A stretch of DNA of 39,449 bases from Campylobacterales bacterium. GTDB taxonomy: Bacteria; Campylobacterota; Campylobacteria; Campylobacterales; QNZT01. Position numbers and translations under genes: made by a program. The stretch covers positions 1 to 39,449 of the forward strand of contig JAOZKZ010000002.1 of NCBI GenBank assembly GCA_029935075.1, given 5' to 3'. Below are positions 192-32,803 of this stretch, piece by piece. Below the pieces are notes generated by a model. That model did not search any database. It saw nothing but the letters and a program-made list of their open reading frames with translations, and was not told the DNA's origin. The first letter of the stretch is position 1; each line of letters opens with the position of its first letter.

Positions 192-1192
192 CAAAACAAC
201 ACCAATTTACCCACAAGGTCAAACAACCCATTCTTTATAAAAAACTCTTGTAATTTACTTAGGTCTTTTTGGTTTGGCTTCTTGTACTCTTGTATCACAT
301 CAGAAGATAACCACTGTGGTATGCCTTCTGGTAGGGCTATTTGTCTGTTCAGGGCATAGTTTAACCTGAATATGTTGTCTTCATTAAGAAGGTCCTCGAG
401 GGTTTTCTTTGACTTCAGGAATCTCTTGTAACCATAAGGAGGGTGGCTGTATGCACTAACACCATAGGTCTTTTCAAACAAGGTATCGAATTCAAAGCGT
501 TTCTCCCAGACCCTAAGTTCTGTCAAATCAGGGTATATTTCCTTGCATTTTTGGCTAAACCTTGAGAACCCTTTTACATTTTTAATATCGTCCCCGGGGT
601 CTCCGCCTATAACATGGTCAAGGATAATATGGACTAATTCACCTTCTTCTATCGTATAAAACTTGGAATTTTGCATGCCAGTGGTTCTGGTAGTCCTCCA
701 AAATTTAACCCCTTCGTGCTCAAGGCACTGGATAAAGTCATGGTCGCTTGAATAAATGACTACCTCTTGACCAAGCAAGGATAAATACTCAGATAAAACG
801 AAAATAATATCATCGCCTTCTGCTTTATTAACCTCGATGGTCTTAAAGGATGTCGTCAAAAGGGCTTTCTTTGCTTCAAGGATAGCCTTATTAGCCTGGT
901 CCCAGTTTACATTGGTTTTTTGCCTTTGCTTTTTCCTTGAGCCTTTGTAGCCCTTCCATATATCTTTTCGCCAATAATTAGAACTATCTGTGCATATTAC
1001 TATCTCTTGTGCCTGGAACTTATTCCTAAATGTACTGAATTCATCAAAAACCTTGTAGAAAAAAATGTCCTTGACTTCATCAAAGTTGTAGTTATCGTTC
1101 TCGTCTTTTTTGAGGTTCATCTTCTTTGCCTCGTTCATGGCACTGAAGACGCAACCGTACAAAATAGGACTTAGGTCTACAAGTAAGGTCAC
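191..1192 (-). CDS. rnh: T4-type RNase H / 5'-3' flap exonuclease
   Basis: IVICTDSSNYWRKDIWKGYKGSRK, AEGDDIIFVLSEYL and IYSSDHDFIQC parallel T4 rnh motifs recalled from memory (CIDNAKSGYWRRD, EADDHIAVL, ISSDGDFTQL). Confidence 0.8.
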   Translation of the reverse strand: MTLLVDLSPILYGCVFSAMNEAKKMNLKKDENDNYNFDEVKDIFFYKVFDEFSTFRNKFQAQEIVICTDSSNYWRKDIWKGYKGSRKKQRQKTNVNWDQANKAILEAKKALLTTSFKTIEVNKAEGDDIIFVLSEYLSLLGQEVVIYSSDHDFIQCLEHEGVKFWRTTRTTGMQNSKFYTIEEGELVHIILDHVIGGDPGDDIKNVKGFSRFSQKCKEIYPDLTELRVWEKRFEFDTLFEKTYGVSAYSHPPYGYKRFLKSKKTLEDLLNEDNIFRLNYALNRQIALPEGIPQWLSSDVIQEYKKPNQKDLSKLQEFFIKNGLFDLVGKLVLF

Positions 1193-1199
1193 TTTAAGC

Positions 1200-2078
1200 C
1201 TACAAAGAATCTAACAGTTCATCAAGGTCTTCTTCTTTTGATTCTTTTGGTTCTGGTTTTGCTTCTGCCTTGTTTACCACCTCAGCGGCTTTTTCTACCT
1301 CTTTTACCGCTTCTTCCGTCTCTTTATCCTGGGCATTCCCTAGGGTCCCTCCATCAAACCATGCCATTTTATCCACGAGTTCATCATAGGTCATGAAGCT
1401 CTCTGGTTTCAGGAAATCCCCCAAAGAGTATGTGTTTTCAGTAATAGCCTTGGTTGCTACTTTCTCGTCTTTATACAGGCTTGTGATTTTCTCATCAAAC
1501 TTAGAGGTCTCATAGCTCAAGAATCCAGTATTTGCTTTTGCTACCTTAAGCAAGAAGTTATTGCCCTCAATGGGGTTAAATACTGCTTTGGCTTCTGCCC
1601 CAAGTGCCAGCTCTGATTCTGTTGGTGTCATTGCATCTTTTACCTTACTAAATAAAGTAGGACTCATATCAAACAAGAATGTCTTGCCATCATTTTCAGG
1701 GTTTTTAGGGTCTTTTACTATTACTATATTAGTAATATACCTAAATGCTCTTGAATATTTCTTGGCTTCTTCTTTCTCGTCTTTATTCCACAACTCCAGG
1801 AATCTCTCGTTAAACGGGTCAGGCTTGCCTAATGTTTGTGGGCTCCATTCAGCCACGAATCTTTTAGAACCATCGTTCTGTCTAGCATTGATTTTAGTCA
1901 TTTTGATAAATGGAAGAGAATCAGCATCTGGAACAAATCTAATCAATGCTCCCCCGTTGTCCTGGTCGTCTCTTGATAGCTTATAGAATCTTTCATCTAC
2001 TGTGTATGTTTTTTTGTTACCCTCTGTTAGTGCATCTGCTTGTAAGTTAGCAGACATTTTATCCCAATCGAAATTCAT
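1200..2078 (-). CDS. gp32: gp32-type single-stranded DNA-binding protein
   Basis: GGALIRFVPD and NIVIVKDPKNPENDGKTFLF parallel T4 gp32 ([29 protein letters not shown]). The C-terminal tail EEDLDELLDSL is acidic. The protein contains no cysteine. Confidence 0.85.
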   Translation of the reverse strand: MNFDWDKMSANLQADALTEGNKKTYTVDERFYKLSRDDQDNGGALIRFVPDADSLPFIKMTKINARQNDGSKRFVAEWSPQTLGKPDPFNERFLELWNKDEKEEAKKYSRAFRYITNIVIVKDPKNPENDGKTFLFDMSPTLFSKVKDAMTPTESELALGAEAKAVFNPIEGNNFLLKVAKANTGFLSYETSKFDEKITSLYKDEKVATKAITENTYSLGDFLKPESFMTYDELVDKMAWFDGGTLGNAQDKETEEAVKEVEKAAEVVNKAEAKPEPKESKEEDLDELLDSL

Positions 2079-2098
2079 TTAGTACCTTTTTTTAATAT

Positions 2099-2161
2099 TT
2101 TAAACTTTTAGACATTAAACTGTCGCTCTTTTTAAACCTTAAACTCTTAAACTCTTAAACC
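2099..2161 (-). promoter_or_regulatory. six GTTTAA(G/A/T) repeats in the leader upstream of gp32
   Basis: On the sense strand the leader reads GGTTTAAG AGTTTAAG AGTTTAAG GTTTAAA ..AGTTTAAT..AGTTTAAA, ending about 20 nt before the ATG at 2078. Confidence 0.5.
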
Positions 2162-2178
2162 ATATATTTCCTTATTTT

Positions 2179-2198
2179 GGATTGCTCTGGATTGCTCT
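2179..2198. repeat. tandem direct repeat ggattgctct x2
   Basis: Two exact 10-mers lie immediately 3' of the gp45 stop codon. Confidence 0.8.
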
Positions 2199-2203
2199 TG
2201 GGC

Positions 2204-2896
2204 TTATTTCATCAAACTCAGGATAAATGTGTAAACCTCGTTTTTCATAACGATTCTATAAGCATCTCTTTCTGTGTTGTATTTCACCATCATTGTGTAA
2301 TCAGTCTCTGGTAACTTTAAGATATTCTCTAACGGAATAGCCAATTCTAAATCACCAGCCTCGTCTAAGGTAGGCTCTATGCCCACAGAATAAGAATTCT
2401 CTGAGGATTTGAAGTTATTCTTAGAGCCTATTTTCAAGAAAACCTTGCCGTTTTCTTTTACAAGATAAAGAGCATCAAGGGTTTTAAATACCCCTGATGC
2501 TTTTTTAATCTTTTTGATAATGCCTTCATTGAACTCGAACTCTAAAATACTAGCAATAGCCTCAGTCGAGGTGATGACCTTTTCATTAGCCACCGAATCC
2601 TCTAATACACTGGGGTCAGACACACAAAATTCACTGGTCTCGTTTGGTCCTTTTATGTGCATTATATTGTCTTTTATAGTAATCTCGGCATCTTCTATCA
2701 ACCCCAAGGCATCCAGAAAATTACCACCATCATAAATACCGAACTCTTTAAATTCTTCCTCAAAGTGACTCAGGTCAATCAACCCCGGTAGGCTCCTGTA
2801 TTCATCAGTAATCGTCATCTTAGGGTAAGATACCACGAAGCTTTTATTAATAGGTAAAAGGCTTTTTAGTATCCCTTGGGTCTGTTTTGTAATCAT
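2204..2896 (-). CDS. gp45: gp45-type sliding clamp
   Basis: It is 230 aa (T4 gp45 is 228 aa). ILKSLLPINKS and IYDGGNFLDALGLIEDAEITIKDN parallel T4 LLKNFATINSG and IYDLNGFLGILSLVNDDAEISQSEDGN. Confidence 0.8.
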   Translation of the reverse strand: MITKQTQGILKSLLPINKSFVVSYPKMTITDEYRSLPGLIDLSHFEEEFKEFGIYDGGNFLDALGLIEDAEITIKDNIMHIKGPNETSEFCVSDPSVLEDSVANEKVITSTEAIASILEFEFNEGIIKKIKKASGVFKTLDALYLVKENGKVFLKIGSKNNFKSSENSYSVGIEPTLDEAGDLELAIPLENILKLPETDYTMMVKYNTERDAYRIVMKNEVYTFILSLMK

Positions 2897-2920
2897 TTCT
2901 TTCCTTTGTCTTTATATGTC

Positions 2921-2943
2921 ATTATATCATTTTAATCTTAAAA
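2921..2943 (-). promoter_or_regulatory. early-class promoter, TTTAAG-N10-TATAAT (TGATATAAT)
   Basis: The sense strand reads TTTTAAGattaaaaTGATATAATgacatataaagacaAAGGAAAgaaATG. A second TTTTAAG box lies at 2948..2954. Confidence 0.65.
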
Positions 2944-2968
2944 TTTCCTTAAAAATCTCAAGGTTTGT

Positions 2969-4411
2969 TTAATATCTGCTTAGGTCTATTTCATTCTCTA
3001 TTAACTCAAATTGTTCTTGACTGTAAAAATTACTCCTTTCCCAAAAGTGTTTCTGGAGGTAGTTTTCGTCTTTTCTTGTGCCAGACATACAATCCACTAA
3101 ATCAAATACAAAGGCTTTTTCTTTGTCTGAATGAAGCCTTAGGACTCTCCCAATGCTTTGTAAAGTAGCCGTGAATGATTTATTACTGCTTAGGTAAACC
3201 AGGTTTTTTAACCTTGGGATGTTAATCCCTGTTGACATAATATTATACTGGGCTATTACCACCGCATTTTTTACCGTATTCAAGTATACCCTTATTTGCT
3301 CTCTTATCTTGGGCTTGGTAGTCCCTGTTATAAAGAAAATCCCTAGGGCTTGCTGAAGGACAAATGAATTTTTAACCTCAGGGGTCATTTTTTGACCGCT
3401 AAGGTCTTCCCATGTGTCTATACCGTGTTGAGTATGGTTGTAAAGACCGACTGTCACCCCTTGTAGTTTACCTAATAAAGCCTTGACAAAGTGTCGTCTC
3501 AGGGGGCTTTCTTTCATGTATTTTACTTCATCTTGATATTTTTTTATCAATTTTTTTGGCACCTGGGGATAGTTTAAGAACATGGCTACTACGGTCAGGT
3601 CAGTCGCCAAGCCAAGTTGTATCATCTCTTTGGCGTTTATGTACCTTTTAGGTGCTCCGAAGTTAGCCTCGAGGGTCATAGCGTCTATTTCAACGATAGG
3701 CAAAGACCCAGTGACACCAAGCCTTCTCTCAAAATCGTTGTCTTTTATTATGGAATTTAGTGTTTCAGCCTTGGCCTGATGTGCCTCATCGACCAAAACT
3801 ACATCAAAGCCTTTAAGGTCACTTTTCACCGCACTTTGCCATGTAGATATTACTACTGGTCTTTTTATGTCCTTGTTTTTAAACTCACCACCTATTTGCT
3901 GGACATCATCAAGAAAATCAGCCCCGTAATCTTTGAAATCTTTGTAGATTTGAGAAACGAGCATTATACTCGGCACCAAAAGCAATACATTTTTATTGTT
4001 CTGGTAGTAGTATTTAACCGCTAAAAAAATGCTCAGGCTTTTGCCTGAATTGTGATGTACTACTTCATTTTGTATATAACAACTACCATTAACATTTATA
4101 TCTATCCATTTTTGTTTAGGTAAATAATCTATACTTATAACCTTTTTATAATCTTTAAACTTACCATCAACCAAAAAATCACCTACTCTAAGGTCGTTTA
4201 TATTTCTATATTCATTATTAAAATATAAAATATGGGTATCTGCGCACTTAAATGATGAATTATCATCTAATGTTATTGTGTATCCTGGTGATTCTTTATA
4301 AAATATTTTATTTACATCTTTGTATCCAGTAGGTGATTCAATTTCGACATCTTTGTTATTCTCTTTTAAAAAAGCAAGTTCTTCAAATGTAATTTCTGTT
4401 ATCATGAACAC
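2969..4411 (-). CDS. uvsW: UvsW helicase C-terminal fragment, preceded by an intein C-piece (about 120 aa)
   Basis: The N-terminal ~120 aa carry Hint blocks (GYTITLDDNSSFKCADTHILYF; KWIDINVNGSCYIQNEVVHHN|S). The rest parallels T4 UvsW: SGKSLS, LLLVPSIMLVSQIYKDFKDY, RPVVISTWQS, VLVDEAHQ, LGVTGSL, SIGRVLRLH. The likely start is ATG 4403..4405, in an ATGA overlap with the upstream stop and preceded by GAGGTG. The track start at 4411 is a GTG. Confidence 0.85.
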   Translation of the reverse strand: MFMITEITFEELAFLKENNKDVEIESPTGYKDVNKIFYKESPGYTITLDDNSSFKCADTHILYFNNEYRNINDLRVGDFLVDGKFKDYKKVISIDYLPKQKWIDINVNGSCYIQNEVVHHNSGKSLSIFLAVKYYYQNNKNVLLLVPSIMLVSQIYKDFKDYGADFLDDVQQIGGEFKNKDIKRPVVISTWQSAVKSDLKGFDVVLVDEAHQAKAETLNSIIKDNDFERRLGVTGSLPIVEIDAMTLEANFGAPKRYINAKEMIQLGLATDLTVVAMFLNYPQVPKKLIKKYQDEVKYMKESPLRRHFVKALLGKLQGVTVGLYNHTQHGIDTWEDLSGQKMTPEVKNSFVLQQALGIFFITGTTKPKIREQIRVYLNTVKNAVVIAQYNIMSTGINIPRLKNLVYLSSNKSFTATLQSIGRVLRLHSDKEKAFVFDLVDCMSGTRKDENYLQKHFWERSNFYSQEQFELIENEIDLSRY

Positions 4412-5538
4412 ACCTCATCAAAAGAAATTGAACATTTCTTGCCTTTCGATCTATTTTCAATAGCAGGTATAAAAATCAAATTTGTTAATTTTCCAATATG
4501 ATAAGGTAAAATATTATCTACAAACCCTTGAAATATTGAATATTTATGGTCTAATTGGTAATCATCTGATTTATTCCCTCTGAGATTGAAATTATCCAAT
4601 TCTTTTAAATCGTTTTGTTTAGTGTTGTACCAAACCAACCGTTTATATACAATAAAATCTGGTATTTCGTTTATTGGAACATTACTTCCAGTTTTTTCTT
4701 TTGTTTTTCTTATTTTAAGTTTCATATAAGTTGTATTCATTCGTATTTTGCATTTTTCACTATATTCTAATATTTCATCTTGAGTTTTGTTTAATATTGG
4801 GTTTTTTCTCTTATTAATTTCTAATGTTTCTAATTCTGGTTTGTTTTCTAATGTTTGTTGCCATTTATTTTGGCGTTCATTAAACACATTAACACCTTCT
4901 ATTATCCCATATCTTTCTATACACAATTCTAACGAAAATGTTGATTGTCTTTGTGATACCAATTTTTTAGATTCCTCTTTAGTAAATCCTTGGTTTAACC
5001 AATATCCAATTTGATTTTGTTGTATATTTTTATATTTTTCGGGATTGGTTTGTTTATCTATTTTTACAGCATCTGCGCCTTTTTTACCAAATTCTGAAGT
5101 GCCGTATGATTTTGATGAATTAATATATTCATTTTTATGATACTGTTTATGGTGTTGTTTATTTAACCCTATAGACACAAATTTTTCTAAAACCATATTT
5201 TTTGAAGTATTTTCATTTAAAAATTTATACTTAAATAGGTGAATTATTCGTTCAGGGGTTAAATTATCTTTAACATCTAACATTTTTCGTATTTTTATAA
5301 ATCTATTTAAAAATCTCCTGACTAATTTTGGTGTATACTCTATATATAGTAAAAATATATCGTTTAAACTTAAATTGATTTTGTCATTATATAAATTTTT
5401 GATAGATTTTTTCATATTGTTATAGTCTACTTCTATTTCTGATTTTGTTTTGTTTTTTCTTCGTTTTCTAAAATCATCTAGCAGTATAATAGAGCCATCA
5501 TCTATATTAACATTGACTTTTGATGATGGGTGAAGACA
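4049..5538 (-). mobile_element. intein-like element in the uvsW P-loop, split over two ORFs and carrying an HNH nuclease
   Basis: It runs from Cys133 of the upstream ORF (codon 5536..5538, CLHPSSKVNV) to Asn (codon 4049..4051, VVHHN) followed by Ser+1. Removing it joins GVSSVG to SGKS, giving a Walker A motif. The segment looks visibly more AT-rich than the flanking extein DNA. Confidence 0.8.
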
Positions 5539-5934
5539 ACCTACACTTGATACACCAAGATGAGAATCATTCTCAATCAACCCTAAGAACAACCTAAGCT
5601 GGTGTTTATATGGCTTAAAGGGGATACCTAAGAGCTCTTCTTTTAAAAAGTCCATACCAGAGGGTAAATCATTATCAGGGGTTTGTATCTCTATATCAAA
5701 AATATCCTGGATTCTGTTAACGAACCCTTTCTGTGTATAAAAAAACCAGCCCTTAGGCTCGGTAGATATCTTGACGGTGTAGAATTTCTTTTTGCCATCG
5801 TATTTGCCCATTCTGTAGAAGGGATTGTGTTGATAATTTATTTCAAAGCAAGACAATTCTTGTTGTAATCTCTGGGCTTGTGCCTTCTGGGTCACAAAAA
5901 TCTCTAATTTATTGTTGTTTATTCTTGCTTCCAA
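4402..5934 (-). CDS. uvsW: UvsW N-terminal fragment (132 aa) fused to a short intein N-piece, a Lys/Asn-rich region and a C-terminal HNH nuclease
   Basis: The N-terminus (FKPYKHQ...LGVSSVG) parallels the T4 UvsW N-domain up to its P-loop. CLHPSSKVNVNIDDG follows, and the HNH motif DYQLDHKYS...TNLIFIPAIENRSKGKK lies near the C-terminus. The frame stays open for 510 codons in AT-rich DNA. The apparent start is TTG at 5934, after AAGGA. Confidence 0.8.
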   Translation of the reverse strand: MEARINNNKLEIFVTQKAQAQRLQQELSCFEINYQHNPFYRMGKYDGKKKFYTVKISTEPKGWFFYTQKGFVNRIQDIFDIEIQTPDNDLPSGMDFLKEELLGIPFKPYKHQLRLFLGLIENDSHLGVSSVGCLHPSSKVNVNIDDGSIILLDDFRKRRKNKTKSEIEVDYNNMKKSIKNLYNDKINLSLNDIFLLYIEYTPKLVRRFLNRFIKIRKMLDVKDNLTPERIIHLFKYKFLNENTSKNMVLEKFVSIGLNKQHHKQYHKNEYINSSKSYGTSEFGKKGADAVKIDKQTNPEKYKNIQQNQIGYWLNQGFTKEESKKLVSQRQSTFSLELCIERYGIIEGVNVFNERQNKWQQTLENKPELETLEINKRKNPILNKTQDEILEYSEKCKIRMNTTYMKLKIRKTKEKTGSNVPINEIPDFIVYKRLVWYNTKQNDLKELDNFNLRGNKSDDYQLDHKYSIFQGFVDNILPYHIGKLTNLIFIPAIENRSKGKKCSISFDEVCS

Positions 5935-5951
5935 ATATATCCTTCTTCTGT

Positions 5952-5974
5952 ATTATACTACTTTATTCTTAAAA
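5952..5974 (-). promoter_or_regulatory. early-class promoter, TTTAAG-N10-TATAAT
   Basis: The sense strand reads TTTTTAAGaataaagtaGTATAATacagaAGAAGGatatatTTG. Confidence 0.6.
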
Positions 5975-5978
5975 AAAC

Positions 5979-6233
5979 CTAAAGAAACAACTCTGGGTAA
6001 TTTTCTATGGCAGTATCAAGGGCTATTCTATTTAATATCAGGTGGCTAGGGATATAATCCATTTTCCCTTTTTTCTTATAATACAATAACCCCTCGTCTA
6101 AACTGCCTTGTTTAGAATATGCCAAAACAGCATGTCCAGGGTATTCTTTTTTTAGTTCATAACCCATAGTAAAACAGGTATCCGTGCCTATGAACTCAAC
6201 GCATCCTATTAGTGTATAATCTTGATCATCCAT
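5979..6233 (-). CDS. hypothetical early protein ending in YPELFL
   Basis: ORF of 84 aa with C-terminus ...AIENYPELFL. Confidence 0.6.
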   Translation of the reverse strand: MDDQDYTLIGCVEFIGTDTCFTMGYELKKEYPGHAVLAYSKQGSLDEGLLYYKKKGKMDYIPSHLILNRIALDTAIENYPELFL

Positions 6234-6270
6234 AATACTCTTTTAGGAGTATTTATACCAAAGGCTCTCT

Positions 6271-6444
6271 TTAGTCTATATACAATGCTATTATATTGAA
6301 AAAAACCAATGTACCAAAAACAGCAAATATGATCTCCCAGTTAAAAATAATTCCATAAAGAACTACTAATGTATACATTACCCCTACCATGGCAAAAAAT
6401 ATTAAAATCAACCCAATGATAGTATACTGGATATTAGTCTTCAT
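6271..6444 (-). CDS. small hydrophobic membrane protein (57 aa, not in the ORF track)
   Basis: My own translation is MKTNIQYTIIGLILIFFAMVGVMYTLVVLYGIIFNWEIIFAVFGTLVFFNIIALYID*. It has two hydrophobic spans, and its start overlaps the end of the upstream small ORF. Confidence 0.5.
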   Translation of the reverse strand: MKTNIQYTIIGLILIFFAMVGVMYTLVVLYGIIFNWEIIFAVFGTLVFFNIIALYID

Positions 6445-6610
6445 TTGTAATCCTTTTTACATTACTTAAGTTAAGCTGGTCTTTATGTATTCTTTGGTAT
6501 TGTTCTTTGTTTATTATGATGTCTACTTTATCACCATGTATACCAAAAACAGTAAAATCAAAGGAATCCACCCCGTGCTTATCCGAAATAAACCTGTAAT
6601 TTACATTCAT
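6434..6610 (-). CDS. hypothetical small protein (58 aa, not in the ORF track)
   Basis: My own translation is MNVNYRFISDKHGVDSFDFTVFGIHGDKVDIIINKEQYQRIHKDQLNLSNVKRITNED*. Its ATG forms an ATGA overlap with the stop of 6607..7524. Confidence 0.45.
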   Translation of the reverse strand: MNVNYRFISDKHGVDSFDFTVFGIHGDKVDIIINKEQYQRIHKDQLNLSNVKRITNED

Positions 6611-7524
6611 AGCAATACCTCTGGGTAATCTTTTTGTATTTGTTTCATATTATTTTCCTTTATTTTTGTTTCTTCTTGGTTATATTTATTCTTGTAGTGG
6701 TATTTTTTGCTATATATTTCTCTTGCCTTATACATATAAAACAATGCCAAAGGGTTGTCTATATTAACCAGGTGTTCGTGGTGTACCAAAAATGTATTCC
6801 CTTTGAACATACCTTTGTAATCAGGTGCCTTATGATTATTAAGATATTCGATAAAAACATCACAAGAAATAAGTGCATTAAAGTATATCATTTTTTCGTT
6901 TTCTTTGGATTCTTTGGTTATGCCTTGATCGTATGAAATATTATCAAATTCATAAGTATTATTCATAATAACATCATAACATCTCTCGGTGTAGTTGTCA
7001 GAGCTTATGTTCTTTTGTTCTTTGTATTTATGGATTCTTTTCATGGTAAATACATTCTTATACATACTGGTCTTCAGGTATCTAAGGGTGTCTTTATCCT
7101 GGAATGTCCAGGCTTCCGTAAACGGAAAATAACTCCAGTATCTTGAGTTATTTAGGTCAAAATCTTTGGTTAGTTTTTCTGGCTTACCGTACTGAAAATT
7201 GACAAGCTGTATTTTCGTACTGAGGTCAATAGTATCTGATGTGCTTGTGCTTTGGATATAAATGTTTTGAGTAAAATCCTTGATGTCTTTGTTTAATACA
7301 TCTATATAATCTTGTGTTATATTATAAGCCTTGTCATAGTCCTCTTCGGTATAAAAATACACATCTATATCACTTGAGGTACTCTGTATGCCTTGGCTTT
7401 TCTGAACCTCGGTAAGCACAAACCCACCAGCCAGGAAAAAATCCACCTGTAAATCCTCAAAAAGAGATAAGACTTCCTTTGAAAACTTGGGGCTTATGTT
7501 GTATTTTATTGGTACATCTGGCAT
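6607..7524 (-). CDS. hypothetical protein with a possible nucleotidyltransferase-like GG...DxD signature, ending in YPEVLL
   Basis: FFLAGGFVLTEVQKSQGIQSTSSDIDVYF loosely fits the hG[GS]-x(n)-DhDh pattern, though the spacing is longer than typical. The C-terminus is ...IQKDYPEVLL. Confidence 0.6.
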   Translation of the reverse strand: MPDVPIKYNISPKFSKEVLSLFEDLQVDFFLAGGFVLTEVQKSQGIQSTSSDIDVYFYTEEDYDKAYNITQDYIDVLNKDIKDFTQNIYIQSTSTSDTIDLSTKIQLVNFQYGKPEKLTKDFDLNNSRYWSYFPFTEAWTFQDKDTLRYLKTSMYKNVFTMKRIHKYKEQKNISSDNYTERCYDVIMNNTYEFDNISYDQGITKESKENEKMIYFNALISCDVFIEYLNNHKAPDYKGMFKGNTFLVHHEHLVNIDNPLALFYMYKAREIYSKKYHYKNKYNQEETKIKENNMKQIQKDYPEVLL

Positions 7525-7533
7525 CTTCTCTCC

Positions 7534-7779
7534 TTATAGTAAAAACTCAGGGTAGTCTTCAATCCGCCCTTGGTAGTTGTTTTGGTAGTTGGTTTCATCC
7601 ATGTCATGGTCTATGTAAATATAGTAACTGTTTTCATCCACTGGGGGTGTCTGGTACATTATTACACAATGAAAGCCAGTATCTCTCTTTTCAAGCACCC
7701 AGTACACTTTGATGTTGTTTTGGTTTTCATACAGGATATCACCCTCCCTGAGTTCATGGAACTTTTTCATCTCTTTCAT
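7534..7779 (-). CDS. hypothetical early protein ending in YPEFLL
   Basis: ORF of 81 aa with C-terminus ...RIEDYPEFLL. Confidence 0.6.
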   Translation of the reverse strand: MKEMKKFHELREGDILYENQNNIKVYWVLEKRDTGFHCVIMYQTPPVDENSYYIYIDHDMDETNYQNNYQGRIEDYPEFLL

Positions 7780-8183
7780 AGAAAGTACTCTGGGTTATCA
7801 TTGACCATTTTGTTACACAACTCAGAAACACTCTCAGGGATACTCTTGTTTAACTGGGCTCTTAGTCTTTTCTCTCTTATTATGTACTCGTTTTTTAATA
7901 TATCAAGGCAAATGAGTTTTTGAATAAGGGCTTCCTTTTCGGTCTTATATACCCAAAATTCCCTGTCTGTATCGAGGAGTTCTTCAAGGTCTACAAAACG
8001 CACTTTTTCTTGTTTTTGTTTATAAGAAAGATTTTTGATATCGGTAGTAGCCACAGGGGAAGATACTCCATTAGTATACATAACAGCCCCATTTATCTCG
8101 TTGTCTACCATAGAGCATATAACAATATCCCTGAAAAATATAACACCACCCGACATCTTAGGTGGGTTCATTCCATAAAGCAC
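7776..8183 (-). CDS. hypothetical early protein ending in NPEYFL
   Basis: ORF of 135 aa with C-terminus ...VNDNPEYFL. Its start overlaps the MoxR stop, and its own stop overlaps the next gene's start. Confidence 0.6.
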   Translation of the reverse strand: MLYGMNPPKMSGGVIFFRDIVICSMVDNEINGAVMYTNGVSSPVATTDIKNLSYKQKQEKVRFVDLEELLDTDREFWVYKTEKEALIQKLICLDILKNEYIIREKRLRAQLNKSIPESVSELCNKMVNDNPEYFL

Positions 8184-9307
8184 TAAGAATCCTTATGCCA
8201 TGCCATCAACTCTGACAAAAACCAATGGTCAGGGGTGGCTTCCTTAAAACCATCGTAATAAAAAGCCTCTATTTCTTTTTTATCAGAATCTTTCCATGTC
8301 TTAAGAATCCCGGCTGCTACCTCGATGTTCAATGACACCACATAAACTGCTACCTCTTTGGCACTAACCGCACTATTCTCGGATAGGTGTTCCTTGAGCA
8401 TCTTTTCTGCCAGTTCAGTAGCAGAGATTACTTCCATCTTTTTGGTAATTTTAGAGAGCTTTTTAGCCATCTTTTTTTGCTGGTCTTTGGTGTCAATCTT
8501 TGAATCACCTATTGTATTAATGATATCTTCTACCGAGATTACATTGATATAGTTTCTCAGGTAATGGAAAAAAGAAGCACCTACTGTCTTCCCTACCTTG
8601 GATAAGATTAGTGTATTCAGCAAAGGTGAATCTTTTGGTGTCACCTTAAGAATCCTGGACAAAGACTCCCAGGCTCTTGGAGACGAGCCTTTTTCAGTAT
8701 CATCCTCAGGGTTGTATACCAATCTCTCTGGGTATTCTGCCAAAAAGTCAGTAATAACAGGGTTAAGTTCCTTTTCTCTTGCATATTTTAAGAACCCTTC
8801 TATAGATGCTTCTACATCAAGGGTAATAAAACGGTCTTCTAATGCCGCATCAAAATCCGAGGAATCGTACTCATCGGATGGGTTATCTGCTACTATGGTA
8901 AGTGTATTCAAGTCATCCAAAAAACCCAAAGAGTGCTCTTGAATTTTACCCTCAAGAACCATTTGAAGTGATGCCTGACGAATTGATAAGCTAGCTCTTC
9001 CTAGTTCATCCATGAATACTATTACATGTTTACCATCTTCGTTTGCTTTCTGAATTCTTTGAAGCCATACTGGTTTAGCCCATGTGGTGACTTTATCACC
9101 TCTGTGGTCTTCTGAAATGACAGGCATACCCATCAAGTCACTTTCATCCATTACCGTAAGTTGGAGGGTTTCGCACCAAAAACCCTCTTCTTCAGCAAAT
9201 TGCTTAACAATCTCAGTCTTACCTATACCGTGTGGTCCTATCATATGAACCGCATTTTGACTCTGGTGTGCTATCTTAAGTATATCTTTCATCTTTTCTA
9301 TTTTCAT
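8183..9307 (-). CDS. MoxR/AAA_5-class AAA+ ATPase
   Basis: It has Walker A MIGPHGIGKTE and Walker B HVIVFMDELGRA, followed by ...LEDRF. This pattern is MoxR/CbbQ/CobS-like rather than clamp-loader-like. Confidence 0.75.
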   Translation of the reverse strand: MKIEKMKDILKIAHQSQNAVHMIGPHGIGKTEIVKQFAEEEGFWCETLQLTVMDESDLMGMPVISEDHRGDKVTTWAKPVWLQRIQKANEDGKHVIVFMDELGRASLSIRQASLQMVLEGKIQEHSLGFLDDLNTLTIVADNPSDEYDSSDFDAALEDRFITLDVEASIEGFLKYAREKELNPVITDFLAEYPERLVYNPEDDTEKGSSPRAWESLSRILKVTPKDSPLLNTLILSKVGKTVGASFFHYLRNYINVISVEDIINTIGDSKIDTKDQQKKMAKKLSKITKKMEVISATELAEKMLKEHLSENSAVSAKEVAVYVVSLNIEVAAGILKTWKDSDKKEIEAFYYDGFKEATPDHWFLSELMAWHKDS

Positions 9308-24825: not shown

Positions 24826-27800
24826 ATGAATAAACCAGTAATAACTACCCAAGAAATATGGGCACAAGGAGCAACTCCACCAAATAAACTCAAGCCAGTC
24901 CAGACCAAGATATCACAAGGCTGGAGCTACGGGGAAAAACCACCTCATAATGAGTTTAACTGGTTTTTCGATGTTACTTCTGAAATGTTTTTAAATATAC
25001 AAGAAAATGGAGTACCATCATGGTCAGGAGATATTAGTTATAATACTAGTGCATTGGCATGGTATGACAATAAAACATGGAAGAGCCTTGAACCTAATAA
25101 CACTAACCACATACCTATGGTTTCTTCTTTATGGTGGAAAGAACTTACTTTAAGTGCATTTATACCTACTTTAGATACCCCTGTGTTATCGGGTGTTTCT
25201 GAAGCATTTGAGGAAACCAGTATAGAGATCATTATAGATAATTATGATTCTTTGGGTACTTATACACTTTATGCCAATCAAGGCACTTATTATAGGACTG
25301 GGGATACCATCACATGGAATATACCAGATGTTCCTATAGACACCAATACTGTTATGGAAGTTTATATTGATAAATTAAATTATTACACATCAGTAACAGG
25401 GGAACATAATGTATTAATAAAAAATATATCTATAGTAGATGACCAAATATTATTGTATAATTCAATAACCATGGATGCTTTTGATGATTTAGTTAATACT
25501 GAACTTTCATCCCTTGATGCTGTTGAGGTAGACACTACGGATGTATTGGATAATGCTTATACTAGCACTACTTCTACAATCTATCTTGATAATAATATGG
25601 TAGATGTGCAAGTAGGCGAAACAATAACTACTGATAATGAGAGTTTTGTAGTTCAAGCAGTAGATAATGATGGTAATTATACAGACCATTATACAAAATA
25701 CTGGGTCACTCCAGTATCTATTTTATCTCAAATCCCTGTTACGGCTTATTTAAATACACACAGAGCAAGATCAACAGATGTAATACAAGATGGCGGAGAT
25801 AATGATTGGACTGGGATTAATAATTCAAGTACAATAGAAAATCCAATAGATGTAAGAGATGATCATCGGGCTTCTGGTACAAGTATTATTTATTTAGACA
25901 ATTCAAGAGTAGAAGCAAGAGTAGGTGAGACTTATTGTTCTGAACTGGGTGATACTTTTATTGTAGAGACTATTAACAATGATGGAACCAAGAATAGTAT
26001 TGATGGTGTTGATATAATATCATGTGGAGTAGCCCACACCATGGTCATAAGAAATGGTGGAGAAGTATGGGGTACAGGGGGAAATGCTTATGGTCAGCTG
26101 GGTACTGGAAATAATGATAATGAGTCCACATTTATCAGAGAAGATCTTGAGATAGAGGATGCCGAACAAATAGCATGCGGTGAATATTTTACTATAATAA
26201 TAAGAAATGGTGGAGAAGTATGGGGGACAGGGTATAATAGTCATGGTCAGCTGGGTCTCGATAACACAGGACATAAGAACACTTTTTTGAGAGAGTCACA
26301 AAATTTCACTGATGCTAAACAAGTAGCATGTGGATTACACCATACGGCTGTCATAAGAAATTTAGGTCAATTATGGAGTAGTGGTTTAAATGATGATGGT
26401 GAACTGGGTTTAAATAATAGAGATCCCAAATCAACATTAACCAGAGAAAGCCAAGAATTTACTGATATAGAACGAGTATCAGCTGGTCAACAATATACAT
26501 CTGTTATAAAAGATGGGCAGGTATGGGGTACTGGGAACAATGGCAGTGGTGAATTGGGTACTAATAATAAAAATAATCAGTCAACATTAACCAGAGAAGC
26601 CCTTGAGATAGAGGATGCCGAACAAATAGCATGTGGATATTTTCATACTGTTATTATACGAGATGGTGGTCAACTATGGACCACGGGTCGTAATAATTAT
26701 GGTCAACACGGAAATGGCACCAATAATAATAAATCTACCTTTACCAGAGAATCACAAGAATTTACTGATGTAGATAAAATAGCTACTGGACGAAATCAAA
26801 CAATCATTGCAAGAAATGGTCAGGTATGGGGAGTAGGTCGAAATGACCATGGTCAATTAGGTATTGGTAATGTATCAACCCAATATTTATTTATCAGAGA
26901 AGTTGAAAATCTTACTAATGTTACTAATGTTGCTTGTAGTGAATTTTTTTCTATGGCTATAAGTGATCAGCAAGTATGGGGCACTGGGGAAAATGCGCTT
27001 GGGCGACTAGGTACAAATGATACTACAGACAGGCGTACATTCAGCAGGGATGCTAGAGAGATTGATGATGTGCTATCATCTTCTTCTTATTATTTAAAAT
27101 ATTGGGTAAATCCTGTAGAAAACCTTCAAGCAGTGCCTTTTAAAGTATATCCTTTGGTTAATATTACTTTAAAAACCACGGAAGAAGATGTTGATTTAAT
27201 ACCCGATAATATCGACTTAAACAGCATCGTAGGTGGAACAGATATGATAGATTTAGATTGGGCAAGCACTACTACATCGGTTTATATAGACAATGAATTT
27301 TTTAATGTTAAGATGGGCGATACTTATGTTTCTGATACTGGAGAACCTTTTAGTGTTGAGGTTGTTAATAATGATGGAAATACTATTTTGACTAATGTTA
27401 AGGTCGTGGCAGTAGGTGAGTATCATACCATGGTTATAAGAAATAATGGAGAAGTATGGGGTACAGGAAAGAACTACAATGGGGAACTAGGATCTGTGGG
27501 TGATAATTATAGATCTAAATTTACCAGAGAATCACGAAATATAGATGATGCTCTGGGTATTTCTTGTGGAGACAAGAGCACCATGATAATAAGAGAAGGG
27601 GGTCAAGTATGGGGCACTGGGGAAAACAACTATGGTGAATTAGGTACAAATGACCAATATGATAGGACTAAGTTTACCAGAGAATCACAAAATTTCACTG
27701 GGGTTACAGATATATCATGTGGACATAATTTTACAATGATTGTAAAATCAGGAGAGGTTTGGAGTACTGGGCGTAATTATGGTCAGTTTGGTATAAATAA

Positions 27801-28677
27801 CACTAATAATAAAAAAACCTTTACTAGAGAAATTTTGCATATAGATGATGCTGAACAAATAGCATGTGGACATGACCATGCCATGATAATAAGAGAAGGG
27901 GGTCAAGTATGGGGAGCAGGACTAAATGACTATGGTCAATTAGCTATTAATAATAGATATGATCAAAGAACTTTTATTAGAGAATACCTTGGTATACATG
28001 ATGCTGAACAAATAGCATGTGGCAAACAGATTACCATGATTGTAAAGTCAGGACAGGCATGGGGGTCTGGGGTTAACGGTGACGGAGAACTAGGAAATGA
28101 TCACCTAAGTTATATAACCACCTTTACTAGAGAATCTTTACATATAGATAATGTTGAACAAGTAGCATGTGGTCGCAATTATAGTATGCTTATATCTAAT
28201 GGTCAAGTATATGGAACAGGGCGTAACCCTTATGGTCCGCTGGGCACTGATGATACTAGTGAGAAACATAACTTTACCAGAGACGATCAAAACACCATTA
28301 ATGCTGAAGATATATCCTGTGGGGGTAATTATGGTACTAGTATGATCATAAAAGACGGGCAGGTGTGGGGTTCTGGTTATAACTACAACGGAGAATTAGG
28401 TACAAATAACCGTACGAATTATTCTATATTTACTAGGGATGATAGAGAAATAGATGATGTAGTGATGCCAAAAACGTACCATGATAGATACTGGATAACA
28501 CCAACTAAACCACTCACCATATTACCTACAGCAGTGTATACATATACACCTACAGTAATAAACCAAGAGTTCAAGGACGAGATTATTAATCCTACAAGAA
28601 GTTTTAAAACAATAGTATATTTGCCCGATTTGGCTAAGATGGAGGAATTCACAGGGACTTTATTGAAAACCTTATAA
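24826..28677 (+). CDS. giant tail-fibre-like protein with two 7-bladed RCC1-repeat propellers
   Basis: The N-terminal GWSYGEKPPHNEFNWFF is a common tail-fibre motif. It carries 14 repeats of the type CGxxHTxxIxxGGxVWGTGxNxxGQLG, in two sets of seven (about 26000..27050 and 27400..28470). Confidence 0.8.
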   Translation: MNKPVITTQEIWAQGATPPNKLKPVQTKISQGWSYGEKPPHNEFNWFFDVTSEMFLNIQENGVPSWSGDISYNTSALAWYDNKTWKSLEPNNTNHIPMVSSLWWKELTLSAFIPTLDTPVLSGVSEAFEETSIEIIIDNYDSLGTYTLYANQGTYYRTGDTITWNIPDVPIDTNTVMEVYIDKLNYYTSVTGEHNVLIKNISIVDDQILLYNSITMDAFDDLVNTELSSLDAVEVDTTDVLDNAYTSTTSTIYLDNNMVDVQVGETITTDNESFVVQAVDNDGNYTDHYTKYWVTPVSILSQIPVTAYLNTHRARSTDVIQDGGDNDWTGINNSSTIENPIDVRDDHRASGTSIIYLDNSRVEARVGETYCSELGDTFIVETINNDGTKNSIDGVDIISCGVAHTMVIRNGGEVWGTGGNAYGQLGTGNNDNESTFIREDLEIEDAEQIACGEYFTIIIRNGGEVWGTGYNSHGQLGLDNTGHKNTFLRESQNFTDAKQVACGLHHTAVIRNLGQLWSSGLNDDGELGLNNRDPKSTLTRESQEFTDIERVSAGQQYTSVIKDGQVWGTGNNGSGELGTNNKNNQSTLTREALEIEDAEQIACGYFHTVIIRDGGQLWTTGRNNYGQHGNGTNNNKSTFTRESQEFTDVDKIATGRNQTIIARNGQVWGVGRNDHGQLGIGNVSTQYLFIREVENLTNVTNVACSEFFSMAISDQQVWGTGENALGRLGTNDTTDRRTFSRDAREIDDVLSSSSYYLKYWVNPVENLQAVPFKVYPLVNITLKTTEEDVDLIPDNIDLNSIVGGTDMIDLDWASTTTSVYIDNEFFNVKMGDTYVSDTGEPFSVEVVNNDGNTILTNVKVVAVGEYHTMVIRNNGEVWGTGKNYNGELGSVGDNYRSKFTRESRNIDDALGISCGDKSTMIIREGGQVWGTGENNYGELGTNDQYDRTKFTRESQNFTGVTDISCGHNFTMIVKSGEVWSTGRNYGQFGINNTNNKKTFTREILHIDDAEQIACGHDHAMIIREGGQVWGAGLNDYGQLAINNRYDQRTFIREYLGIHDAEQIACGKQITMIVKSGQAWGSGVNGDGELGNDHLSYITTFTRESLHIDNVEQVACGRNYSMLISNGQVYGTGRNPYGPLGTDDTSEKHNFTRDDQNTINAEDISCGGNYGTSMIIKDGQVWGSGYNYNGELGTNNRTNYSIFTRDDREIDDVVMPKTYHDRYWITPTKPLTILPTAVYTYTPTVINQEFKDEIINPTRSFKTIVYLPDLAKMEEFTGTLLKTL

Positions 28678-31300: not shown

Positions 31301-32803
31301 ATGGAAAAGCAAATAGAACAATGGAAACGAAGTGTAAGACAATCTAATCTACAAGATGACCCAGAAGATGCAAGAGACTATCTGTTTAATCCTGCTAAGC
31401 TACCCCAGGCACCATTACCAGCAAGCAAAGACCTAAGACCCCTGACACCACAAGTCGAAGACCAAGGAAATATAGGCTCTTGTGTTGCACAAGCTTGTGT
31501 AAATATGTATGAGATACTCTTGACTAAATCCGATAATTTTTATGACCTGAGTAGATTATTTTTATACTACACAGTAAGAGAAGAACGACCAGAATTGTGT
31601 TGTATAGATGCAGGAGCATATCTAAGAGATGGTGTAAGAGAAGCATACAAAAAAGGTGTTTGTAAAGAGAGCATTTATCCTTATATAACATCTAAAGTAA
31701 ATGAAAAACCCACACCAGAAGCTTATCAAAATGCTTTAAGTACAAAAGTAGGGAGATATGAGAGAGTCCATGGATTGGATTCTGGTTATTATGCCAATCC
31801 TTTAGCAATACAGGATATGAAAATGGCATTGGCAAAGGGGTTTCCAGTAGCGATTTCTATGAAACTGGCTAATGAATTTTTTAGCCTATCGGGTCCACTT
31901 AGCACCCACGATTATAAGGGAATAGATGAAGAACACCCTAGTATAGGCGGTCACGCTATGTGTATAGTCGGATTCGATGATGCCATGAACGGTTTCATTG
32001 TTGAAAACTCATGGGGACCTAGTTTCGGTGATGGTGGATTCTGGTTATTGGATTATGATATAGTCATGACTAATGTTAGGGATGGATGGGTAGTTACTAA
32101 TTTTAACGGAATAGATTATGAGGATGAGTGGGCACCAGATGCACAACTCACTAATAACACTGCTTTAAATTTTCCATTTTATATTGAAGATTTTGAAGGT
32201 TTCGGTCCCATGACATCTACAGTCCAAGGTGGCACTGGTGACTTGGAATACAGCTGGAGAATGGATGCTTATGGATTAGACACTGCTTTAACACATGCAT
32301 CAGAAAAAACCGCTTATTTCAGGCTACCGGGACACACTAAAAATCCTACTACATATACTGGTTATGTATATGTAAGTGACACGACTGGGTTAAGCTGTAA
32401 GCAACTCTTTACACTAAACATGTTCGATGGTCATAACCCTAATTATGAATCACCCAGTGCCGATTTTGTAAGACGATTATATACTGTTATGTTAGAAAGA
32501 CCAGCAGATGAATCAGGTGTATCTTATTGGGCAGAGGCATTAGATAATCAAATCATAACAGGTGCAGGTATAGTAAAAGCATTTACAGAACAACCGGAAT
32601 ACGATGAAAAGATGTATACAGAGTGTGAAGAAGTGTCTAAAATATATCAAACTATGCTCAAACGAGACCCTGATTGTCCGGGATATGCTTATTGGTTGAG
32701 TTATTATGTTGAAAATCAATCATTAGATAGTATGATTGATGGATTATCACATAGTGACGAGTTTATTTCCATATGCCGTGAAGCTGGTATAAGACCTTAT
32801 TAA
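31301..32803 (+). CDS. papain-like (C1 family) cysteine peptidase with C-terminal DUF4214-like repeats
   Basis: QGNIGSCVAQAC carries the catalytic Cys context, and GGHAMCIVGFDD...VENSWG carries the His and Asn-Ser-Trp. The C-terminus has FVRRLYTVMLERPADESGVSYW and IYQTMLKRDPDCPGYAYW. Confidence 0.75.
   Translation: MEKQIEQWKRSVRQSNLQDDPEDARDYLFNPAKLPQAPLPASKDLRPLTPQVEDQGNIGSCVAQACVNMYEILLTKSDNFYDLSRLFLYYTVREERPELCCIDAGAYLRDGVREAYKKGVCKESIYPYITSKVNEKPTPEAYQNALSTKVGRYERVHGLDSGYYANPLAIQDMKMALAKGFPVAISMKLANEFFSLSGPLSTHDYKGIDEEHPSIGGHAMCIVGFDDAMNGFIVENSWGPSFGDGGFWLLDYDIVMTNVRDGWVVTNFNGIDYEDEWAPDAQLTNNTALNFPFYIEDFEGFGPMTSTVQGGTGDLEYSWRMDAYGLDTALTHASEKTAYFRLPGHTKNPTTYTGYVYVSDTTGLSCKQLFTLNMFDGHNPNYESPSADFVRRLYTVMLERPADESGVSYWAEALDNQIITGAGIVKAFTEQPEYDEKMYTECEEVSKIYQTMLKRDPDCPGYAYWLSYYVENQSLDSMIDGLSHSDEFISICREAGIRPY

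Follow-up and report, generated by a model that had tools for sequence, protein, structure and literature searches.

The closest described counterparts of the locus reported here are the fractured genes (Dassa, London, Stoddard, Schueler-Furman and Pietrokovski 2009; PMC2677866), in which a phage DNA-metabolism gene is split inside an intein by a free-standing nuclease gene of the GIY-YIG or Vsr-like kind. The N-half is followed by a stop codon and a spacer of 27-51 nt, all open reading frames (ORFs) share a strand, the nuclease gene often extends at its 3' end into the start of the downstream ORF (by 6-69 bp in 15 loci), and the break is the canonical one between blocks B and F in all but one case. 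The same study proposed a hypothetical step, IIIa, in which loss of the flanks of the nuclease gene puts the nuclease in frame within the intein. Other counterparts are the atypically split inteins such as VidaL, PolB16 OarG, AceL-TerL, GOS-TerL and the consensus Cat intein, which come from phages or metagenomes and combine a very short N-piece of the Hint fold (splicing is known for natural ones of 15-37 aa; PMC13014065) with a C-piece of about 120 aa, and the contiguous nuclease-bearing inteins such as PI-SceI. Here we analyse uvsW, the gene of a phage DNA-repair helicase, in 39,449 nt of a T4-like phage contig (JAOZKZ010000002.1, positions 1 to 39,449 of the forward strand, in the Campylobacterales bacterium assembly GCA_029935075.1); this whole stretch is called the window below. 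The gene is split inside an intein, and a nuclease gene is in frame with its first half.

As in the fractured genes, a phage DNA-metabolism gene in the window is split inside an intein by a nuclease gene, the two halves share locus and orientation, and the nuclease gene runs at its 3' end into the start of the C-half, here by 4 nt (ATGA). An earlier note on this DNA, made from the sequence alone, had called the arrangement a variant of the fractured gene, and in locus, orientation and overlap it is one. The nuclease of the window, however, is not free-standing: it continues in frame from the N-half without a stop codon. Moreover, it has an HNH-like motif, and the break lies 14-40 residues past Cys1 instead of between blocks B and F. 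With the atypically split inteins the locus shares the very short Hint N-piece, the size of the C-piece and the source, but whereas their N-fragments amount to 15-37 aa in total, the chain in the window goes on for 378 aa after Cys1, including 337-364 aa of nuclease, and the host site is the Walker A motif of UvsW. Like PI-SceI, the excised element would hold both a Hint fold and a nuclease and would be functionally the same composite selfish element. Unlike PI-SceI, it would consist of two chains from two ORFs, with the nuclease located upstream of block B near the Hint N-terminus and built from an HNH-like motif and a modular repeat, not LAGLIDADG.

Two split nrdA genes are also comparable. 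In Aeromonas phage Aeh1, an HNH-type nuclease gene, mobE, splits a T4-like phage gene and mobile-element sequence ends up translated within the host fragments (Friedrich 2007; Crona 2011, PMC3045599); unlike the window, Aeh1 nrdA has no intein, and its fragments join non-covalently, without ligation. In Campylobacter phage vB_CjeM_WX1 (OP654737), a free-standing ORF between split-intein halves of nrdA is homologous to residues 272-508 of the first uvsW ORF of the window, ORF1 (32% identity, E=8e-10). It overlaps both neighbouring ORFs, but its frame differs from that of the N-half, and the intein is split canonically, with about 110 aa before the break and about 35 aa after it. As a separate observation, the WX1 nrdA region (L002, 1-4250) contains two classical split inteins (...NLC/CLAGDT... 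and ...PAGN/CISEDH..., the slash marking the splice site here and below) with ORFs between the halves; the record lists the nrdA pieces under hypothetical proteins and three separate genes named 'RNR alpha'.

Judged by its sequence, the window sits between a fractured gene, an atypically split intein and a nuclease-bearing intein, departing from each in one defining respect. It matches step IIIa half done, with the 5' flank of the nuclease gene lost and the 3' flank kept (PMC2677866). Rather than a system of a new kind, it is a rare intermediate between two arrangements already known.

The intein in the Walker A motif of UvsW

On re-reading the window, we confirmed all coordinates, frames and sequences that the earlier note had claimed for the two uvsW ORFs (Table 1). 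ORF1 starts with TTG at 5934, preceded by GAAGGA (5945..5940) at a spacing of 5 nt, and its N-terminus, MEARINN, agrees with homologue starts MIEARINN. The encoded N-extein is 53% identical to that of L003, a related phage contig, and 52% identical to P0004, an uninterrupted homologue (L and P numbers denote loci and proteins). Directly after GVSSVG, Cys133 (5538..5536) opens CLHPSSKVNVNIDDG, and the frame stays open for 378 codons, up to the TGA at 4404..4402. In ORF2 the VVHHN of the C-piece ends at 4051..4049 and Ser+1 follows at 4048. The helicase part of ORF2 matches Pfam ResIII (E=8e-15) and also DEAD and Helicase_C, and the C-extein is 57% identical to that of L003.

Removing the insert (4049..5538) gives a product of 491 aa and 56.6 kDa that is 56.6% identical to P0004 (488 aa). 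The clean P-loop and the helicase of about 491 aa foreseen in the earlier note are borne out by this alignment, which has no gap at ...GVSSVG/SGKSL...; the motif GVSSVG/SGKS is the same in P0004, whose sequence around the site is ...HLGVSSVGSGKSLV..., and the junction peptide of the predicted spliced product reads ...HLGVSSVGSGKSLSIF.... The insert is also more AT-rich than its surroundings, as had been remarked, with a GC content of 0.25 vs 0.37 in the N-extein and 0.39 in the C-extein.

The nature of the insert is indicated by its relatives. When the ORFs were checked for Hint and intein matches, as the earlier note had suggested, the C-piece matched the solved inteins gp41-1 (PDB, E=1e-7) and, at E=1e-5, the consensus of the atypically split inteins, CatC (PDB 6DSL); for VidaL the match was marginal (E=0.8). 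With the 119-aa C-piece as query, HMMER run exhaustively yielded 89 representative proteins. Of these, 57 end in ...HN/[ST]GKS, the same Walker A site in UvsW-like helicases, and many of the 89 are contiguous mini-inteins (...TG/CLDPxSxIxVxx, a short loop or helix, then ITxxEL...) at this G/SGKS site. The nucleophile, Cys133, aligns with Cys1 of the contiguous members (...TG/CLDP...). In a 24-sequence alignment ADTH (His58), WID (Asp102), HHN119 and Ser120 are all invariant or nearly so; Ser+1, nearly invariant in the family, is present in the window. From its Cys1, block B His, terminal His-Asn and Ser+1, we conclude that the insertion is a class-1 intein in the Walker A motif of UvsW.

The intein is broken very early. 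Its 14-aa core, CLHPSSKVNVNIDD, can be aligned with contiguous relatives and with the N-pieces of L010 and L018, which at CLDGNTIVDAEISD and then a stop codon are the shortest natural ones in the family. The segment after the core, GSIILLDDFRKRRK, is a family-typical helix that is present in contiguous members too; equivalent helices are ISEDAYKLLKKFL in contiguous L008 and SQSDLKFLEDNFH, followed by a stop codon, in split L024. The isoelectric point of the first 30 aa of the N-piece is 9.6 vs 5.0 for the C-piece, a contrast that gives an indirect hint of association between the two. The earlier note had placed the split 15-25 residues into the Hint fold and likened it to AceL-TerL. The very early break stands, with a Hint part made of the 14-aa core and a short helix, related N-pieces ending after 14-45 aa. 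The likeness holds as far as an atypical early split is concerned, but the break point aligns, weakly, with the early site of VidaL and PolB16 (about 15 aa in) and not with that of AceL-TerL, which is after helix alpha1 (PMC13014065).

Two candidate similarities were rejected. We regard as a spurious extension the tblastn match between residues 27-119 of ORF2 and the N-terminal part of UvsW in Campylobacter phages; those phages have an uninterrupted UvsW of 519 aa. The segment SIILLDDFRKRRK, located after the N-piece, might have been a duplicate of the start of the C-piece, EITFEELAFLKEN, but contiguous relatives carry both in series (L008 ...ISEDAYKLLKKFLTPKGKIKTTITYEELLYL). We also observed a terminator-like hairpin (TTCAGGCAAAAGCCTGAG and a T-run; 4032..4049, minus strand) exactly on the codons of the C-terminal splice junction. 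Matches to such hairpins number 2 vs 1.9 in shuffled sequence, and this one is probably due to chance.

Table 1. Features of the split uvsW locus (positions in the window)
Feature	Position	Strand	Size	Basis or residues
ORF1, N-precursor: UvsW N-extein, intein N-piece and in-frame nuclease	5934..4402	minus	510 aa, 60.3 kDa	
UvsW N-extein, ORF1 aa 1-132, ending ...HLGVSSVG (first half of Walker A)	5539..5934	minus		homology
Intein N-piece core, aa 133-146, CLHPSSKVNVNIDD (Cys1 and first beta-hairpin)	5497..5538	minus		family alignment
N-piece tail, aa 147-173, GSIILLDDFRKRRKNKTKSEIEVDYNN (family-typical short helix and linker to probable old nuclease start)	5416..5496	minus		
Homing-endonuclease gene in frame with N-piece, aa 174-510, probable old start Met174	4405..5415	minus		
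Repeat module, aa about 300-385 (IGYWLNQGFTKEESKK...RQSTFSLELCIERYGIIEGVNVFNERQNKWQQTLENK), presumed DNA-binding	4780..5037	minus		
HNH-like motif, aa 458-500, DYQLDHKYS...TNLIFIPAIENRSKGKK	4435..4563	minus		motif pattern
Junction: GAGG (4416..4413), 7 nt, ATG (4405..4403) overlapping TGA (4404..4402) as ATGA	4402..4416	minus		
ORF2: intein C-piece and UvsW C-extein	4405..2969	minus	478 aa	
Intein C-piece, ORF2 aa 1-119, MITEITFEEL...KCADTH...WIDINV...VVHHN	4049..4405	minus		block B His58, block F Asp102, block G His-Asn
UvsW C-extein from Ser+1 (SGKSLS..., DEAH, QSIGRVLR), with stop codon	2969..4048	minus		Pfam

The nuclease in frame with the first half

How unusual the first half is becomes apparent from a census of the family. 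It was compiled by profile-guided scans of IMG/VR, JGI metagenomes and GTDB genomes, with C-pieces collapsed at >=90% identity and checked by eye, and comprises 33 distinct loci: nine contiguous mini-inteins of 127-150 aa, 22 split loci with both halves visible and two represented by the C-piece only. Among the 22 split loci, 20 have an N-precursor that ends 14-45 aa past Cys1, and the most compact version is the CLDGNTIVDAEISD mentioned above. The exceptions are L003, with 171 aa, and the window, which with its 378 aa is alone in crossing a complete nuclease gene. The observation of the earlier note that the nuclease is fused in frame to the N-precursor is thus upheld, and it sets the window apart both from those 20 loci and from the original description of fractured genes (PMC2677866).

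The frame is free of stop codons from Cys133 through codon 510, and the insert contains 39 and 46 of them in its two remaining frames. In addition, none of 20000 composition-preserving shuffles of codons 133-222 stayed open. Taken together, the shuffles and the stops in the other frames argue that the in-frame continuity is not due to chance. What the earlier note had described as about 355 Lys/Asn-rich residues is indeed there, but it is actually a complete homing-endonuclease gene: free-standing homologues of 300-400 aa match the insert collinearly over all of its length beyond residue 66-90 (antisense ORF of L010, E=8e-23; P0003, E=6e-40; L009, E=9e-12). The nuclease gene probably began at Met174 (ATG 5415..5413). 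This residue is conserved in L003, the projected starts of the homologues point to it (the Met of the L010 ORF falls at about ORF1 residue 166), and a start there leaves an N-piece tail of 41 aa, near the 45 aa of L009. No sequence resembling a Shine-Dalgarno (SD) site precedes any internal start codon of ORF1, Met174 included. In L003, the frame is readable for the 171 codons beyond Cys1 at 41% identity.

As to the kind of nuclease, the C-terminus of ORF1 carries ...DYQLDHKYS...NLIFIPAIENRSKGKK. The pattern LDHKYS, 18 residues, NL, 7 residues, N.SK is invariant in nine homologues at D-H, N-L, N and K. We take it to resemble the HNH pattern (D/H-H, N, N/H), although its spacing is longer than usual, and we use the term HNH-like as an inference from motif and context. 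Comparison with the HNH domain of Cas9 by hhalign resulted in a probability of 0.6%, which leaves HNH membership unsupported. The AlphaFold2 model of the nuclease part had a pLDDT of 58, and Foldseek found no match for it at E<2.

The nuclease genes of the family have a module in common, YWLxKGFxxEEA...ERQSTFSLEKCIxxxGxEEGxxxWxxRQxKWQxTL. It is joined to three catalytic ends, HNH-like, Vsr/PD-(D/E)xK-like and T5orf172-like, all in the same intein loop. Its carriers include loci L009, L012, L017, L035 and L010 and proteins P0008 and P0010-P0012. The Pfam search of the module returned DUF7487 alone, covering part of it (P0007).

Proposed mechanism and its alternatives

Based on these data, we propose that this phage uvsW contains an atypically split intein with the nuclease as the tail of its N-precursor, and that UvsW would be restored by trans-splicing. 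We put the probability of this reading at roughly three in four. On this reading, a homing-endonuclease gene has broken the intein in the loop about 14-40 residues after Cys1. Its 3' end is still separate, with the stop codon overlapping the ATG of the C-piece, and its 5' end has lost any stop codon or spacer. Ribosomes would consequently read through the N-extein, the N-piece and the whole nuclease to make a 60-kDa N-precursor, and a 55-kDa C-precursor, consisting of C-piece and C-extein, would be produced, probably through ribosomes that re-initiate at the overlapping ATGA. The two intein pieces, the N-piece basic and the C-piece acidic, would then assemble into a complete Hint fold and splice in trans. 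The outcome would be a 56.6-kDa UvsW with an intact P-loop and a released chain of N-piece and nuclease (44.8 kDa) bound to the C-piece (14 kDa). Such a complex would be equivalent to a two-chain nuclease-bearing intein nicked at the boundary between nuclease and C-piece, and its nuclease would cut alleles without the element and have the element copied in. What the sequences show directly is the layout of the ORFs, the point of insertion, the homology with inteins, the conservation of the break and how rare the in-frame fusion is; splicing, re-initiation and both the activity and the target of the nuclease we infer.

ORF2 has a TGA in its frame at 4417..4415, so that an indel fusing the two ORFs is possible only within 13 nt, 4402..4414. 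A single-nucleotide change there would suffice to turn the locus into one contiguous nuclease-bearing intein of 497 aa, and a sequencing or assembly error of this sort has to be considered. Yet this 13-nt segment has neither a homopolymer run nor a slippery heptamer. The L003 contig, assembled by Logan from SRR8202337, matches the window in gene order and at 41-57% identity region by region, and it keeps the frame break: the stop codon of its nuclease ORF and the start codon of its C-piece ORF again share an ATGA. From SRR21545383, Logan assembled a sequence that agrees with the window at every position of 402..7995 (7594 nt, 100% identity). Furthermore, L009 has an overlap of 11 nt at the same junction (8 nt without the stop codon), in about half of the 89 homologous proteins the chain starts, with a Met, where the C-piece does, and 22 distinct loci of the family are broken in this loop. 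Kept in L003, which is about 50% diverged, and identical in an independent assembly, the frame break is in our judgement real, and the view of the earlier note that this is a split and not a frameshift error is corroborated also by the Met starts at the same intein point in dozens of homologues. We therefore regard the indel as highly improbable. Still less probable is a programmed -1 ribosomal frameshift that would yield one precursor chain for splicing in cis. The frame of ORF2 is -1 with respect to that of ORF1, and slippage on the A-run is conceivable at the L003 junction (GAG AAA AAA TGA), but the junction of the window (GAG GTG TGT TCA TGA) is devoid of a slippery heptamer. The feature thus differs between the two loci, and a good SD sequence and an ATG are present instead. 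The ATGA overlap and the GAGG were seen by the earlier note as designed translational coupling. Both elements are there; a special design, however, need not be invoked, such an overlap being a known property of these nuclease genes (PMC2677866). A local RNA hairpin over the SD sequence and AUG of the junction gives a weak signal (z=-2.0).

Two other alternatives concern what is made from the locus. The nuclease could be mainly a free protein translated from Met174, in which case the in-frame read-through would be incidental after loss of a stop codon and the tail of the N-precursor useless, with UvsW still being trans-spliced. The conservation and placement of Met174 and the length of the N-piece tail ahead of it would fit this possibility, as does the nuclease part of L003, which is in a separate frame with its own ATG. 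On the other hand, besides the lack of SD-like sequences before Met174 and the other internal starts, there is no T4 late-promoter motif inside the gene, sigma-70-like matches are no commoner than in shuffled sequence and the RNA structure upstream of Met174 is not notable (z=-1.2). Moreover, every ribosome starting at codon 1 would still make the full-length fusion. We consider a mainly free nuclease rather unlikely but worth keeping in mind. The second alternative is that uvsW is decaying, the nuclease insertion having disabled the intein so that no helicase is made. The degraded look of the L003 nuclease part and the AT-richness of the insert, far above that of the gene, could be interpreted in this way. 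However, both ORFs are intact in DNA of 25% GC, where stop codons are frequent, and the invariant family residues (His58, Asp102 and His-Asn) are all kept together with the helicase motifs. Both exteins and both intein pieces are conserved across the pair of about 50% divergence, and 22 distinct split loci share the organisation. Decay therefore appears improbable, if less so than an indel.

Several results weigh against the trans-splicing proposal or parts of it. The Pfam profile Intein_splicing matches ORF2 (profile positions 20-96) below threshold, with E=4.7e-4 and 20.4 bits against a gathering cut-off of 35.8. The AlphaFold2 model of the C-piece alone has a pLDDT of 38, and we make no structural claims from the predictions. 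A tail of 364 aa on a 14-aa N-piece is without tested precedent and could slow or block assembly. Pfam and NCBIfam gave no HNH match and a PDB profile search brought up spurious leucine-rich-repeat matches only, so that the HNH nuclease of the earlier note is backed by a motif conserved in nine homologues but not by these profiles or by hhalign. Finally, the L003 nuclease part is broken by a stop codon and a frameshift and has lost 29 aa, and hence the fused state may be short-lived instead of selected. It is tempting to speculate that the fusion is nevertheless a selected, working two-chain nuclease-bearing intein, which would have given up its own expression signals, would be made 1:1 with the N-half of UvsW and would be freed as an active complex only after trans-splicing. 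This remains a tentative idea, and we hold it to be doubtful.

The intein family, the rest of the window and their meaning

Loci of the family differ mainly in what lies between the intein halves. The nuclease types given here were assigned by short motif patterns, not by profile matches. On the sense strand, there is an HNH-like nuclease gene in the window and in L003, a Vsr-like one in L009, a T5orf172-like one in L035 and a 690-aa ORF of unknown kind in L028. On the antisense strand, the gene is HNH-like in L010, Vsr-like in L017 and T5orf172-like in L012, L051 and L055, and an unclassified ORF is found in L036, L042 and L047. Only remnants are left in L030 and L048, and a bare gap of 9-145 nt separates the halves in L018, L024, L032, L038, L040, L054 and L056.

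In other words, at least eight split uvsW loci have an opposite-strand ORF between the halves, a recognisable nuclease gene in five of them (L010:3351-4538, L012:186-1250, L017:2653-3750, L055:577-1725 and L051) and unclassified in the rest (L047:1694-2959, L036 and L042). The ends of these ORFs overlap both intein-half ORFs, whereas in the original fractured-gene description all three ORFs are on one strand. Some individual loci deserve mention as well. L028 (1-3200) has an N-piece of 14 aa (CLSPDTMIECIVED and a stop codon) and a C-piece ORF 2.6 kb away, its 690-aa sense ORF replacing the usual nuclease gene of about 350 aa. In L053 (865-2148), a contig in a Bacilli metagenome-assembled genome, a 428-aa protein with RRxRR and a CxxC...HH...CxxCH HNH motif, IscB-like in appearance, is encoded directly upstream of the C-piece ORF; the N-half of UvsW is absent from the roughly 2.1 kb of contig upstream of that ORF. 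Several UvsW homologues have, besides the Walker A intein, a second one at the DExH box (...VDE/CLHPDS... or ...VDE/CLDEES...), namely P0015, P0022 and P0034 and those of L011 (4000-5457), L054 (3977-4903) and L056 (1923-2888). In L032 (560-760) a stop codon lies 20 aa past Cys1, and about 8 nt further on an open frame without Met leads into the C-piece. L019 (2060-2072) has one stop codon in the helicase part where the near-identical L020-L022 have Q. The stops in L032 and L019 may be errors or recent pseudogenisation.

When the locus was compared by megablast with 50,697 GenBank phage records, no match appeared, and tblastn of the C-piece was likewise negative, so at this sensitivity the UvsW-site family appears to be metagenome-only. 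A word-indexed protein search returned no protein for the C-piece alone and one protein for a 24-sequence profile. When IMG/VR was scanned with one protein at a time, the insert or the C-piece, matches were confined to the repeat module or missing altogether. In the literature searched, neither an intein at Walker A of UvsW nor a split-intein N-piece with a nuclease attached was described; an earlier description is possible. The family is apparently undescribed.

Elsewhere in the window, a 1283-aa protein with matches to RCC1 repeats and an RCC1-like domain (E=8e-140) is encoded at 24826-28677 (+) among the structural genes of this T4-like phage contig. A MoxR-type AAA ATPase (8183-9307, -) and a DUF2201 metallopeptidase/VWA protein (32806-34089, -), which are normally paired, are 23 kb apart, and the latter gene adjoins one for a papain-family protease fused to DUF4214 repeats (31301-32803, +). 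The T4 late-promoter motif TATAAATA occurs 12 times vs 6.7 expected, mostly just upstream of ORF starts and never inside the uvsW locus; the sites include 6250, 10421, 11039, 13748, 19647, 22966, 28673, 30887, 34427 and 38304. The copy at 6250-6257 (-) is upstream of a small ORF preceding ORF1. Near the contig end, the ORF at 38316-39326 (-) combines a TaqI-like specificity domain with only the last part of an Eco57I-type methylase domain and may encode a truncated or divergent DNA methyltransferase.

What is known of the intein mechanism is unchanged by the locus. In its family, nature provides many split inteins that have Cys1, Ser+1 and an N-piece of about 14 aa, a type that is sought for peptide-based protein labelling. 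The merger of inteins and homing endonucleases into composite selfish elements has been argued mostly from end states, and here the flank-loss step is seen half done. Relatives cover other stages: a contiguous intein without a nuclease, a free-standing nuclease on either strand, a degraded nuclease, and a split intein from which the nuclease has been lost. If the fusion does work as a selected two-chain element, the window would provide a directly observed intermediate in the acquisition of nuclease domains by inteins, at a loop never before seen to host one.

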